64,000 bases of DNA from Escherichia coli (GTDB lineage: Bacteria > Pseudomonadota > Gammaproteobacteria > Enterobacterales > Enterobacteriaceae), in assembly GCF_003790525.1 (NCBI RefSeq), contig NZ_CP033635.1. The stretch is one strand, 5' to 3'. Shown one piece after another: positions 51,992 to 57,626 of the stretch (position 1 is its first letter; each line of letters begins with the position of its first letter). The notes beneath the pieces were generated by a model. That model saw nothing but the letters and a program-made list of their open reading frames with translations. It was not told the origin of the DNA and ran no database searches. Both the position numbers and the translations under genes were made by a program.

Positions 51992-53662
51992 TCACCGTAT
52001 TCTCTGAAACAGGCCCCAAATCGTCCCAATGATATTATTCACTGTCATGTTAGTTGTGCATAACATCCATGTACCAAGCATAGGATCGCCAAATAAAAAG
52101 CGGATATCTGTAAGTTTATCCGATGACGACGACACAATAACGGCCTGTCTGATACTATACCCGGGTATTTCACGGGTATTTGTTACCTCATGATTTCGTT
52201 CTATGATCCCCAGAACATAAGACCCCACGGAATAAACACTTCCGACGCTCGCTGGCTGCCCCGGCTGTCCCTGCGGACCTGCCGGGCCGCGTTCACCTGT
52301 ATACCCTCTTGGCCCCTGCGGACCTGCCGGGCCGCGTTCACCTGTATCCCCCTTTAGTCCCTGTGGACCTGCCGGACCGCGTTCACCTGTATCGCCCTTT
52401 GGTCCCTGTGGACCACGCTCCCCCTGGGCTCCCAGCTCTTTCCATTCAGACCAGGGGCCATTACCGGTAAAATTACCAGTAACAGTTCTTACGAACTTTC
52501 GTGGTGGGTTCCAGGTTGTATATTCATGCTGGCAATATCCCCATGCACCAACTCTTACCTGAAGATAACCCGCTCTCTGAATCGGATAATTATTTTCTCG
52601 TGTAGCCCTACTGTCTGATGGCTGATAATAATCACCCTGATCGGTCACTCGTCCCAGTCGGTTCAGATCACCATTCAGCAGTTGTCCACGGGATGACTCT
52701 CCTCTTGGTCCCTGTGGACCTGCCGGACCGCGTTCACCTGTATCGCCCTTTGGTCCCTGTGGACCTGCCGGGCCACGTTCACCTGTATCGCCCTTTGGTC
52801 CCTGTGGACCTGCCGGGCCGCGTTCACCTGTTTCACCTTTTGGTCCCTGTGGACCTCCCGGATCTCCTTTATCCCCCTTAGGGCCTTTTTCTCCTCGCTC
52901 ACCCTTTTCTCCCTTCAGACCCTGAGGGCCTTCCGGACCACGTGCACCTGTTTCGCCCTTTGCTCCCTGTGGACCTGCCGGGCCGCGTTCACCTGTTTCA
53001 CCTTTTGCTCCCTGTGGACCTTCCGGACCACGTGCACCTGTTTCGCCCTTTAGTCCCTGTGGACCTGCCGGGCCGCGTTCACCTGTATCGCCCTTTGGTC
53101 CCTGTGGACCTGCCGGACCGCGTTCACCTGTTTCACCTTTTGGTCCCTGTGGTCCTGCCGGGCCACGTGCTCCTGTTTCACCTTTTGGCCCCTGTGGCCC
53201 GGTAATGCCTCTTTCACCACGAGCGCCGGTATCCCCTTTCTCTCCTCGTGGTCCCCGGGCAGATGCAGCTCGTTTCCGGGCTTCCTCCGCCTCAGATGCC
53301 GCGGACTCTGCTCTGTGCAGTATGGACTGCACCACAGCCTCCAGCTCTGACAACGCCTTCGGATAATAAGGAGCATCTTCCAGCTCCATCAGAAATTTAT
53401 TCAGTGTTCCCGGTGAAGAATCCTCCCTGACCACGATATCTCCCACATACGAAGGACGGTAACCTTCTGTATTGAGTGTCACCCTGTATATTCCTGGCTC
53501 CACATCCATACTGTAACTCCCCGTCTCTTCCGGCATGCCATAAGCCACTGTCGTGGCGATGACTGTCTCGCTGGTTCTCTTCGCTTTCAGCTCAATAATG
53601 CATCCCGGTACCGGTTTTCCGGTTCCGTCCCTCAGCACGCCTGAAATTTTTACAGCCGCCAT
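51992..53662 (-). CDS. stf: Side tail fiber protein (Stf-like) with collagen-like Gly-X-Y repeats
   Basis: 556 aa; N-terminus MAAVKISGVLRDGTGKPV resembles lambda Stf; long GPxGxxGxxG runs. Confidence 0.8.
   Translation of the reverse strand: MAAVKISGVLRDGTGKPVPGCIIELKAKRTSETVIATTVAYGMPEETGSYSMDVEPGIYRVTLNTEGYRPSYVGDIVVREDSSPGTLNKFLMELEDAPYYPKALSELEAVVQSILHRAESAASEAEEARKRAASARGPRGEKGDTGARGERGITGPQGPKGETGARGPAGPQGPKGETGERGPAGPQGPKGDTGERGPAGPQGLKGETGARGPEGPQGAKGETGERGPAGPQGAKGETGARGPEGPQGLKGEKGERGEKGPKGDKGDPGGPQGPKGETGERGPAGPQGPKGDTGERGPAGPQGPKGDTGERGPAGPQGPRGESSRGQLLNGDLNRLGRVTDQGDYYQPSDSRATRENNYPIQRAGYLQVRVGAWGYCQHEYTTWNPPRKFVRTVTGNFTGNGPWSEWKELGAQGERGPQGPKGDTGERGPAGPQGLKGDTGERGPAGPQGPRGYTGERGPAGPQGQPGQPASVGSVYSVGSYVLGIIERNHEVTNTREIPGYSIRQAVIVSSSSDKLTDIRFLFGDPMLGTWMLCTTNMTVNNIIGTIWGLFQRIR
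52250..53290. repeat. Collagen-like Gly-X-Y coding repeats (two blocks) within stf
   Basis: Reiterated cctgtggacctgccgg...cgttcacctgt units; protein shows G-P-X-G triplets. Confidence 0.8.
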
Positions 53663-53720
53663 ACTCGCTCCACAAATAAAAAAGGCGCCATTTCTGGCGC
53701 CCGTATCTGGGTTATAAAAT

Positions 53721-56700
53721 TCAGCTAATCGTGATGCCTGCAGTGGCTTTCTTCATCACAACAACCAGCAAATCGCTGATACTTGCTGAGGGATACCAGC
53801 CATTTACCCACCATGCTGATACCGAAAACTCCAGTGTCATTACGCCACTGCCTGCAGGCATATCAATAACACCCGTGTATATCAGCGTATTATCCAGAGC
53901 CGTTCGGTTATAAATTTCAGCCCCGTTTTTCTTCACTATCAGGCGGCATGACGAATAAGGCTCCTTATCCTTCCGCGGATGTCTGGCCCCCCTGAAAGCC
54001 ACCGCTGGAATAACAATTTGCCGGTCAAACGGCTGATCGTCATAAACCCTGACGGTAATGGTCCCTGATGGCCACGTCTCCGGTGCACGGGAGTCACGGG
54101 GGAAAGCCTTACCCACTGTTTTAACGAGATCGCCTTCAATCTGGTTTGCAGACAGTTTTCCCAGAACCCGACAGTTCTCGTTAATCGTGACGTTGTTGAG
54201 CGAGCCCGAATTCGCATTCACGTTACCACTGATATCGACATTTTTCGCCGTCAGACGCCCGTCCGGTGTCAGGGAAAATGCCGGGGGATTGCCGGATGAG
54301 GTGATACTCACCGCAAACAGTCGCTTCATGAAAACATCATTCATGAACAGCTGATCACCCTGAGCCACAAACAAAGGTGTTGTATTGCCATTTTCCGGGT
54401 TAATCATCGCAATACGATCTGCCTGCATCAGGATCTGACTCTGAATTCCGTCAGACGTATTTTCGATTCCGGCACCAATACCTGCAATATAGAGACGTCC
54501 ATCCCGTGTCTGCTGCAGCTTCACAGCCCACATGCTGTTCAGGTTCCGGCGCGTGTCCTCCTGAACTTTCTGTATCTGCTCAATGCTGGCATTCCAGGAT
54601 CCCAGTTTTTTATCCGTGCTCTGTTTGATCTGACTTCCCTTATCATCAACATACTGTCTGATCTGCGCTATCTGTCGGCTGTTCTCCTCCGTGCTCCTGC
54701 TTACTGTCTGCCGGATTTCGCTTCCCATCCTGTCAACTTTTCTGTCAACTTCCGCAATGGCCATTGACTGTTCACCGCTCTTTTTCGCCACAACAGTACT
54801 TATTTGCGCACTTTTATCATCAACATACTGCCTGACCTGCGCTATCTGTCGGCTGTTCTCCTCCGTGCTCCTGCTCACTGTCTGCCGGATTTCACTGCTC
54901 ACGCTGTCAACTTTCCTGTCGACTTTCGCAATGGCCAGCGACTGTTCACCGCTCTTTTTCGCCACCAGTTCCGTTATGCTGTTTTCAGACGCCGTGATTT
55001 TTTTCGTCACCTCTGCGATATCACGCTCCGCACGCTGCCTCACATCTTTCTCCAGCTGCGTCATTTCGCGGTTAATCTCATTCTCCAGTTGCTCAACTTC
55101 AGTGCGCCGTGCAGAGGCATCAATGCGTTCATTGATCTCCCGTCCCAGATGCGTTTTATTTATCGCCCCCCTGAAAAAATTAAGGTAAGCGGCAGGATCA
55201 TTACTCGGTTGACCGACTGCCTCCACGAATGCCGATTTACCGACAGTGTTAACACTGCGGATATAAAAGTAATAATCATGGCCAGGTTTAATATTCTGGC
55301 CGGAGACAAGCCACTGACTTCCGGTACCAAGATAACGGGCTGTGGTTTCAACCTGCCTGATATCGGTAATCCGCTTTTCCGAAAACCAGAACTCAAACTG
55401 TACCGTCGGATCATAAACCGCAAGATGCGGCGTGGCGGTTATCTGAAAATAGCCCGGCGTCAGCTCAATCCGCGACGGCGCTGCCGGTGCGGCAATCCGG
55501 AACGATACCGACGCCGGGTCTCCCTGCTGCCCCCGGGAATTTACTGCCCGGACTGTCAGCCTGTAGTTCCCCGGCGCCAGCTGCCTGAAGCGGTATGTGG
55601 TTTCCGTCGTCCGGGCCGTGCTGACCAGCCGCTCACTGCCATCATCCGCGGCCACGGTCAGGCGAAGCAGGAAGCTCACGCCCTTCACCACCTTCGGCGT
55701 GTCCCAGCGGGCCAGTACCTGATACTCCCCGCTGTCTGCGGTGACTTCGACAGTCAGGTGCTGCACCGCTGGCGGCGTGACACCATTCACCGTGCCGCTC
55801 TGGTCGCCGTCAAAGTGTGCCCCGTTATCCACGATGGCCTCTTTTTCCGGTACATGCTGCACGGCAGTGATGGCATACGTGCCGTCGTCGTTCTCACGGA
55901 TACTCACGCAGCGGAACAGGCGCTGGCGCAGCGTCGGCAGCTTCAGCCCCCACACGCTGTACTCGGCAACGCCGTCAGGAACCCGGCTCACTTTTACCTT
56001 CACGCCGTCGGTGACGGACTGAACCTCCACGCTGACCGGATTGCCACTTCCGTCAACCAGGCTTATCAGCGTGGTACCGGAGGATGGCAGCTTGATTTCA
56101 CGGTCGAGCGTCAGCGTCCGGGTCTGGCTGTTCACCGTCAGCACACGACCACCGGTGCTGATACCGGCATAGTCATCATCACAGATTTCAATGACATCGC
56201 CCGGTACATGGCGAAGCCCTTCAGCACCCACGCTGAAATCCACGGTCTGCGTCTCCAGCAGTTCTGTTTTAATCAGCCACAGCCCGGCGCGGTGTGCCTG
56301 CCCCCGACTGGTACAACCAAAGGCATCCATCTTCGTGACATTACGACCGTAACGGGCAATGGCCTGCGTATCTTCAACAAGCTCTGTCGCCGTCTCCTGG
56401 CCGTTATCCGGGTCACTCCAGTTCACCTCAACGGCATTATGGCGGTCCTTCAGGGCGCTGAAGCTGTAGCGGAACGGCGCGCCATCATCCGGCATCACCA
56501 CATTACTGCGGTTATAGGTCCACACCTTATCCGACTGTCGGTCCTGCACGAACGTCAGCGTCTGCCCGTTCCATACCGGCATACAGCGCATCGCCGAGCA
56601 GAAATCACTGAGCACATCCCACGCCTTACGCTGCCTGGTCAGCCAGGCATTACAGGTGATGCGCGGCTCCGTGCCACCAGAGCCGTCCGGCACCGACTGG

Positions 56701-57626
56701 TCGCAGTACTGGCCGATGACATACAGCGCCCATTTGTCCACATCCGCTGCGCCAACACGTTTCCCCATGCCGTAGCGCGGGTGGGTCAGCATATCCCACA
56801 GACACCAGGCCGGGTTATCGCTGTATGCCGGTTTAAACGTTCCGTCCCAGATACCGCTGTATTGCCGCGTCTGCGGGTTATAATTCGACGGCACCTGCAG
56901 AATGCGCCCGCGAAAATGATAATTACGGCTCACCTGCTGGCTGCCGAACTGCTCCGAATCCACCTGCACACCGACCAGTGCCGTGTTCGGGTAGCACTGT
57001 TTCACATCGATGATTTCGGTGTATGACGACCAGAGCGTTTTGTTCTGCAGCTGGTCTGTGGTGCTGTCCGGCGTCATCCTGCGCATCCGGATACTGAACG
57101 GGCGCGGCGGCAGGTTACCCACCACCACCGAGGCCAGATACTGCGAGGTGGTTTTGCCCTTAATGGTGATGTCTTTTTCCGTTAACCAGCGGCCGTTACG
57201 CTGTATCTGAACCAGCAGGCGGACTTCCGACGGATTCCGGTCCCCCTTTGAGGTGGTTTCCACCAGTGCCTGCACACCGAAGGTCAGGCGCAGACGGTCG
57301 ATGTTTGCCGACGTGATGGTCCGGGTAATCGGCGTGTCGTACTTCACTTCCGTACCCAGCACCGTCTCGGAGCCGGAGGATTCAAATCCCTCCGGCGGTG
57401 TCTGCTCCTGCTCACCGGCACGGAACACCACCGTGACGCCGGAGATGTTGGTATTCCCCTCACTGTCCAGCACCGGCGTACCGTTCAGCAGCACGCTTTT
57501 TAATCCATCCACCGGTCCTTGTATCGGCCCTTCGCTGATGACATCGATCACACTCAGCAACTGCGTGGATTTCAGATTGTCCTTCGCTTCGCGCGGGGTA
57601 TGCCCCTTACTGCTGCCTTTACCCAT
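53721..57626 (-). CDS. J: Tail tip host-specificity protein J
   Basis: 1301 aa; N-terminal 800 aa closely resemble lambda J ([28 protein letters not shown]). Confidence 0.95.
54650..54975. repeat. Imperfect tandem duplication of about 168 bp (56 aa) inside J
   Basis: Two copies of the [18 protein letters not shown]...[27 protein letters not shown] coding unit. Confidence 0.8.

Follow-up and report, generated by a model that had tools for sequence, protein, structure and literature searches.

In phage lambda, the alpha-helical shaft (AHS) of the tip attachment protein gpJ comprises residues 809-861 and forms a three-helix bundle under the fibronectin type III (FNIII) domains (Ge & Wang 2024, PMC11101478; PDB 8xcj/8xck, 8iyk). 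On LamB binding this shaft flips by ~180 degrees, and residues 809-840 and 841-861 refold, partly to beta structure (PMC11101478). Longer coiled coils have been described in other J-like proteins: phage T1 gp33 (PDB 9l9p chain S) protrudes by ~370 Å in an AlphaFold 3 prediction and is visibly longer than lambda gpJ, its C-terminus being unresolved experimentally (PMC11945409), and J-like “needle” fibres were reported with RBPseg to carry a coiled coil of varying length (PMC12143355). The present analysis concerns the J gene of a prophage in a stretch of 64,000 nucleotides (the window) from Escherichia coli (assembly GCF_003790525.1, contig NZ_CP033635.1), in which the shaft measures 223 amino acids against 53 in lambda and contains internal repeats of 11, 29 and 58 amino acids. 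With a probability of about three in four, the additional sequence is part of an extended trimeric helical rod that puts the fibre and the receptor-binding domain (RBD) ~25 nm further from the tail tip.

The window shaft lies at the same place as that of lambda, between the second FNIII domain (FNIII-2) and the beta-prism fibre, with homologous ends and the same neighbouring domains; it differs in its length, in its repeats and in its hydrophobic period, which is 29/8 (3.63) residues compared with a weak peak at 3.40 in the lambda shaft. The same architecture is found in the long-shaft J proteins of phages PhiR49_2 and PhiR40_1 and of E. coli prophages, which hold one copy of the 58-residue unit and share ~57% shaft amino acid identity with the window, whereas the window has, relative to the two phages, a second 58-residue unit and one more 11-residue unit, 69 amino acids extra in all. 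With T1 gp33 and the “TC9” J-like fibres of the BASEL collection it has in common a J-like hub, an elongated coiled coil and a beta-helical tip, although those fibres belong to other viral genera and have other distal ends. The match between the window protein and T1 gp33 is weak on the coil alone (expect value, E, 0.24) and reaches E 2.5e-9 once the conserved fibre is included. T1 gp33 has a tandem repeat of its own in the coiled coil before the fibre, at residues about 913-1005 (…REVIATETEALSREIDQLKAQIGDDIQASLTDI… twice).

The J protein and its helical shaft

The open reading frame (ORF) list, Pfam and BLASTP agree on a complete J gene on the minus strand of the window (Table 1), whose product is longer than the 1132-residue J of lambda (NC_001416). 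Its Pfam domains follow each other in the order FNIII-A_GpJ, Phage-tail_3, Ig_J, Ig_J_second, Phage_Tail_Tip and Ig_GpJ_C, all above the cut-offs, and its C-terminal part matches solved fragments of lambda gpJ (8xcj, 8jvm). Upstream of J, adjoining it on the same strand, are ORFs of 109, 232, 261 and 223 amino acids, which correspond in size to M, L, K and I of lambda; homologous loci carry, one after another, the annotations minor tail protein L, C40 peptidase and tail assembly protein, and the order M-L-K-I-J is retained. The window protein is a lambda-type tip attachment J, with the hub, the two FNIII/Ig domains, the fibre and the RBD all present.

The extra segment had first been noticed in an initial annotation of the window, made from the sequence alone, which placed it at 54600-55140, within ~20 nucleotides of the limits now given in Table 1. 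The statement that the first ~800 residues track lambda J was borne out by BLASTP, which aligned residues 1-836 without a gap at 93% identity (774/836), while a second BLASTP segment aligned residues 1012-1301 with lambda 841-1131 at 52% identity. Since these two segments leave a gap at residues 837-1011, the window protein has a surplus there of 169-170 amino acids, in agreement with the ~170 originally estimated; pairwise and global alignment both confirm that the segment is extra relative to lambda. The Ig_J_second domain ends at residue 818 in both proteins, and the Phage_Tail_Tip domain starts at residue 1015 in the window and 845 in lambda, so that 196 amino acids separate the two domains in the former and 26 in the latter; the remaining Pfam borders are as in lambda. 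The flanks of the shaft, window residues 809-836 and 1012-1031, align with lambda 809-836 and 841-861. The extra residues sit between the counterparts of lambda 836 and 841, that is, inside the AHS, and therefore an existing domain was expanded, which replaces the earlier description of an inserted module. The segment also does not directly precede the receptor-binding region, as had been thought, but the beta-prism fibre, beyond which the RBD follows.

The duplication that had been described as an imperfect tandem repeat of 56 residues is real, with a unit of 58 residues. Tandem Repeats Finder (TRF) reported a repeat at 54640-54965 with a period of 174 nucleotides, 1.9 copies, 91% matches and a score of 561, and the two units are identical at 47/58 amino acids and at 145/174 nucleotides (29 differ). 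Lag autocorrelation has its maxima at 58, 29, 87 and 11 residues, with the 29-residue sub-period, the second highest, beneath the 58-residue one. The lambda sequence TEDNASRLEEFSKE aligns with the last unit of the window and equals one degenerate copy of the 29-residue unit. The segment is charged, as had been noted, with 35% D/E/K/R, no proline and 5 glycines in 175 residues. It is not an assembly artefact, because 21 complete E. coli genomes have the two-unit sequence as well, with an identity of 96.8-99.7%.

The helical character of the shaft was followed by its hydrophobicity spectrum, which for residues 809-1031 has a single dominant peak at 3.63 residues (29/8) with a power of 153, a value that 0/300 shuffled sequences reached (maxima 52 ± 12), and no signal at the canonical period of 3.5 residues. 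The local period is ~3.7-3.86 (hendecad- or pentadecad-like) at residues 823-894, compared with 3.60-3.66 over the repeats. When the sequence is projected at 29/8 residues per turn, isoleucine or valine occupies 31/70 positions on the seam versus 5/157 off it, and this hydrophobic seam keeps one register through all seven 29-residue rows. AlphaFold2 (AF2) modelled the shaft alone (residues 805-1040) as two helices at residues 811-824 and 826-1039, the second being unbroken over ~214 residues, with a mean predicted local distance difference test score (pLDDT) of 86.3, in keeping with the coiled-coil-like character first proposed. On these models the shaft is a continuous amphipathic helix with a hydrophobic seam, and the homology of its ends to the solved lambda bundle, together with the beta-branched core, argues for a parallel trimeric bundle.

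Table 1. Features of the J gene in the window, with positions in the 64,000-nucleotide stretch
Feature	Position	Strand	J residues	Evidence and remarks
Complete J gene (tip attachment / central tail fibre protein)	53721..57626	minus	1301 aa	ORF list, Pfam, BLASTP
FNIII-A_GpJ			86-207	Pfam E 7.4e-40
Phage-tail_3			330-496	Pfam E 2.8e-40
Ig_J (first FNIII/Ig domain after hub)			610-714	Pfam
Ig_J_second (second FNIII/Ig; upper shaft anchor)	55173..55481	minus	716-818	Pfam E 7.9e-40
Whole alpha-helical shaft (AHS)	54534..55202	minus	809-1031	223 aa, 53 aa in lambda
Segment without lambda J counterpart	54594..55118	minus	837-1011	BLASTP gap, global and multiple alignment
Pair of 11-aa (hendecad) units	55026..55091	minus	846-867	multiple alignment, allele sequences
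58-aa repeat unit 1	54792..54965	minus	888-945	TRF; two 29-aa sub-units; absent from L009
58-aa repeat unit 2	54618..54791	minus	946-1003	TRF
Beta-prism central straight fibre (CSF; Phage_Tail_Tip / DUF1983, PF09327)	54201..54584	minus	1015-1142	Pfam E 2e-28
C-terminal Ig-like RBD (Ig_GpJ_C, PF12421)	53724..54116	minus	1171-1301	E 1.3e-35

Shaft alleles in E. coli prophages and phages

The distance between the conserved anchors VGKSAFVE and MWAVK made it possible to compare shafts among J proteins, and the spacings form a series (Table 2). The clean indels in this series are of 7, 11, 29 and 58 amino acids, all in frame; the 7- and 11-residue steps lie in the hendecad-like N-terminal part, and the 29- and 58-residue steps in the part with the 29/8 period. 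The step sizes match the local periodicity, and therefore the Ile/Val seam is kept in phase. The first 11-residue unit is missing in the alleles with a spacing of 168, whereas L002 and L006 have three copies.

Table 2. Spacing of the anchors VGKSAFVE and MWAVK in J proteins of lambda and of prophage loci (L numbers)
Spacing (aa)	Found in	Remarks
67	lambda	reference
95	L004, L078 type	diverged sequence
168	L003, L007 type	diverged sequence
179	L009	+11 vs 168
204	L012	+7 and +29 vs 168
237	window, L008, L011	+58 vs 179
248	L002	+11, extra copy of 11-aa unit
306	L006	+58 vs L002, third 58-aa unit

L009, from E. coli LH50-c, has a J protein that is 100% identical to that of the window in the CSF and RBD, where the 270 residues beyond the shaft match, and that shows 98.5% identity in the hub; in the shaft it lacks unit 1 and has scattered point differences, and its single unit differs from unit 2 of the window by 1 nucleotide. 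Two of the three units of L006 are 100% identical in DNA, and that duplication is therefore very recent, whereas the two units of the window have a synonymous divergence (dS) of 0.25-0.46 and differ at 29/174 nucleotides, so that their duplication is either old or the units were joined by unequal recombination between alleles. In the LH50-c genome (NZ_CP100500.1) a two-unit and a one-unit allele are present in separate prophages, at 1509033-1509933 and 2040020-2041325, and these are substrates for inter-allele recombination.

Growth of the shaft in place is supported by the alignment of lambda TEDNASRLEEFSKE with the last unit and by an exhaustive HMMER search of 1.84 billion representatives, in which the 22 matches were J proteins or their fragments and repetitive or coiled-coil proteins, with no donor family and no non-J donor among them. 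Four of the proteins found (P0034, P0037, P0040 and P0042) were judged to match through composition and to be unrelated to J. With the insert as query, a word-indexed protein search also gave 22 matches, nearly all of them J fragments from draft assemblies and uninformative on lengths, and a search of PDB sequences with the insert alone gave nothing significant (best E 0.59).

The J gene as a whole is a mosaic relative to lambda, its DNA identity dropping from about residue 750 onward (~0.95, then 0.79, then 0.65), and the shaft type of the window occurs in combination with no fewer than two distinct C-terminal ends. Shafts with two or three units also occur on J proteins of 1169-1238 amino acids (L002:1175-5639, L006:1133-5771, L008:6675-11106 and L011), which break off shortly into the beta-prism and finish in an unrelated tail (…KKLTVDFARVTGDIRSDNFHSG…RVRLGRL). 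They are followed by two small ORFs of 74 amino acids (no family) and 220 amino acids (phrog_425, “membrane associated protein”), and these loci look like an alternative distal or receptor-binding arrangement. L010 (NZ_AP027520.1, 1788-5468) encodes a 1226-residue “phage tail tip protein” with a window-type 3′ end directly after a head decoration gene, which suggests a prophage remnant where a large internal deletion brought head and J genes together, either fused or side by side.

The frequency of these alleles was determined in 5426 complete E. coli genomes and in 50,697 phage records. The J flanks of the query had some match in 3749/5426 genomes. A window-type shaft (at least 80% coverage) was found in 21 of them (0.4%), including 8 records of 5,067,659 bp that are apparently one strain, and the L003-type shaft in 23. 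The L007-type shaft, 100 amino acids longer than that of lambda, is present in 725 genomes (13%), the two-unit allele being ~35 times rarer. Among the phage records only PhiR49_2 (PV340570) and PhiR40_1 (PV340560) have a long shaft, a single-unit one with a spacing of 168 in a J of 1232 amino acids; their listed host is ECOR13, whereas K-12 or E. coli C is the host given for their relatives with a short shaft. A scan of IMG/VR yielded the new 204 allele, and 62 of its best 80 matches had a spacing of 168; it is unfit for frequencies, since the best 80 matches favour long shafts. Long shafts are thus common among E. coli prophages and the two-unit allele is rare. The initial annotation had proposed a survey of J lengths, with its reading to be dropped if most characterised J proteins had the segment; it is absent from nearly all characterised phages, with the two single-unit exceptions above, although the longer shaft is widespread in prophages.

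Substitution patterns show purifying selection on the shaft: comparison of the L003 allele with the L007 allele gives a ratio of nonsynonymous to synonymous divergence (dN/dS) of 0.11, that of unit 1 with unit 2 of the window 0.23-0.29, and that of the hub with lambda 0.15.

Coiled coils of differing length are already known from J-like fibres, so the novelty is modest; taken by itself, the window shaft adds one more length variant to a domain and a protein that are both well documented. Three aspects may be new: an allelic series that moves in quantised, repeat-driven steps among near-identical lambda-type J proteins, the 29/8 periodicity, and the contrast with the flip of the short lambda shaft. 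In the literature, of which coverage was incomplete, no report was found of these aspects, nor of a J insertion or coiled-coil polymorphism in lambdoid prophages. In view of the repeat in T1 gp33, repeat-driven extension of the shaft may be general in J-like proteins.

Proposed reach of the central fibre and competing explanations

In lambda, it is through the shaft that receptor binding is converted mechanically into tail-tip opening. In the explanation favored here, the extra ~170 residues would be a tandem-duplication expansion of the AHS of gpJ, which as a three-helix bundle on the tail axis would link the FNIII collar to the beta-prism fibre and the RBD. Each chain would form one continuous amphipathic helix of ~215-220 residues, compared with ~53 in lambda, and at ~0.148 nm per residue the shaft would measure ~33 nm in the window and ~8 nm in lambda, provided that its length is proportional to the number of residues; the central tail fibre would then probably reach about twice as far. 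The growth in place would have proceeded by steps that fit the helical bundle, i.e., 7 or 11 residues in the N-terminal part and 29 or 58 in the C-terminal part (8 turns, 3.625 residues per turn). The benefit may be reach or stand-off, e.g., to bring the RBD through O-antigen or capsule to the outer-membrane receptor; alternatively, a different stand-off before the tube meets the membrane is a candidate. Receptor-triggered opening might still proceed via the conserved shaft ends, which refold in lambda.

Some of this touches on what had been proposed at the outset, and the initial interpretation is partly supported. An altered tail-tip geometry appears to be the most likely consequence of the long shaft, but host range in the sense of receptor choice is set by the divergent RBD, which is 41% identical to that of lambda, 88.5% to that of PhiR49_2 and 100% to that of L009, and the shaft would act on it only indirectly, through reach. 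Long shafts are compatible with infectivity, since the PhiR phages carry the shaft with a spacing of 168 and PhiR40.1 was used in efficiency-of-plating (plaque) assays (PMC13190303). In the BASEL study, lambda was reported to be unable to plate on K-12 in which the O16 antigen had been restored (PMC11990801), and therefore surface glycans do stop short-fibre lambdoid phages; a benefit of the long shaft does not follow from it.

Several points weigh against an extended trimeric rod with these properties. The predicted template modelling score (pTM) of the shaft-alone AF2 model is only 0.35, and charged amphipathic sequences tend to come out of AF2 as long single helices. A second model with the flanking domains (residues 716-1142), which was built on a shallow alignment of 8 sequences and used for secondary structure alone, is helical with a pLDDT of 43.6 and a break at residues 918-922. 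Both models are monomers, and the trimeric parallel packing is proposed from the homology to lambda. A flip in the manner of lambda by a shaft four times longer is hard to picture. The two-unit form was found in none of the 50,697 isolated-phage records, the window prophage may be defective, and an informal look at the loci examined gave no evident co-variation of shaft length with side-tail-fibre length.

The break in the flanking-domain model is also one of the points in favor of a compact arrangement, in which the extra helices would fold back (helix-turn-helix, down-up-down) and form a collar or knob beneath the FNIII domains, so that the fibre became thicker or decorated and not longer. 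Glycine- or serine-rich spots about every 29 residues and a weak, sub-threshold match of Apolipoprotein type would fit such a fold. It is nevertheless quite unlikely, because the hydrophobic seam does not change register in any 29-residue row, the segment has no proline, and the AF2 model of higher confidence is unbroken over residues 826-1039; moreover, an odd number of passes would be needed between FNIII-2 and the fibre, and hairpins would require paired changes, whereas the indels of 7, 11, 29 and 58 residues fit the in-phase extension of a rod. Still less probable is that the repeats are neutral products of slippage or unequal crossover in decaying prophages, with no functional effect or a mildly deleterious one. 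The rarity of the two-unit allele, several of whose carriers are one strain, and its absence from isolated phages agree with this, as do degraded carriers such as L004 and L010 (truncated or fused J) and L005 (fragmented J). However, the J ORF of the window is intact, the ORFs ahead of it match M, L, K and I of lambda in size, dN/dS in the shaft (0.11-0.29) is as low as in the hub, every indel seen is in frame and of a size compatible with a coiled coil, and the dS between the units means that both copies have long been kept in frame; in addition, 13% of genomes have the single-unit long shaft, as does a phage with which plaque assays are done. Least probable, indeed hardly to be expected, is a foreign module that was recombined from a non-J fibre or adhesin gene. 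The mosaic nature of J, the joining of one shaft type to at least two C-terminal ends and a weak resemblance to the coiled coil of a phage short tail fibre (E 0.26-0.59) would be in line with such an origin, but the profile-free HMMER scan gave no truly similar non-J protein, the units have a homologue in the flanking unit that lambda also possesses, and the intermediate spacings of 95, 168, 179 and 204 join the lambda form to that of the window stepwise.

Beyond the extended rod itself, a more speculative and rather unlikely proposal is that the shaft is an evolvable ruler, whose steps of 7, 11, 29 and 58 residues (~1-9 nm) would be matched to the thickness of O-antigen or capsule, and that the flip was replaced by another route for the signal. 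It would account for long shafts being common among the prophages of wild E. coli (13%) and yet nearly missing in phages isolated on rough laboratory strains. As a rod of 33-43 nm cannot plausibly flip by 180 degrees, the receptor signal would have to travel by another route, e.g., unzipping or collapse of the coil. The natural, graded shafts of ~8 to ~43 nm on otherwise near-identical J proteins, and above all the pair formed by the window and L009, which are mainly one 58-residue unit apart in the shaft, are material for asking how the ejection trigger travels along the central fibre and whether fibre length helps temperate siphophages to reach porins through surface glycans. The series also offers rational cut points and length increments for J-based host-range chimeras.

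Neighbouring genes

Two long antisense ORFs lie wholly inside J on the plus strand (54804..57026, 740 amino acids, and 54691..55188, 165 amino acids) and are probably a by-product of codon composition. No lom gene follows J in the window, where lambda, L003, L007 and L010 have an Ail/Lom gene. After a gap of 58 nucleotides only (53663..53720), J is followed by a side tail fibre gene (stf; 51992..53662, minus strand) that encodes a phage_tail_N domain and long collagen-like G-X-Y tracts (Pfam Collagen, E 4e-41), with repeats of a 45-nucleotide period at 52267-52414 and 52705-53197 (11.3 and 3.3 copies), and then by a DUF4376 protein at 51402..51977.

Downstream of the tail-fibre genes, in the manner of a lysogenic-conversion gene, is a gene for a YadA-like trimeric autotransporter of 538 amino acids (49386..51002, minus strand; YadA_anchor E 1.2e-16), whose stalk contains 5.6 tandem copies of a 99-nucleotide, 33-residue unit at 49808-50364 that are 98% perfect. 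With the collagen tracts, the YadA-like repeats and the repeats of J, the three consecutive fibre-type genes J, stf and YadA-like therefore all have tandem repeats in their rod parts; the known homologues of all three are trimeric. The YadA-like gene is present at the matching place in the related prophages L008, L009 and L005, and its repeat number may vary among these and the window.

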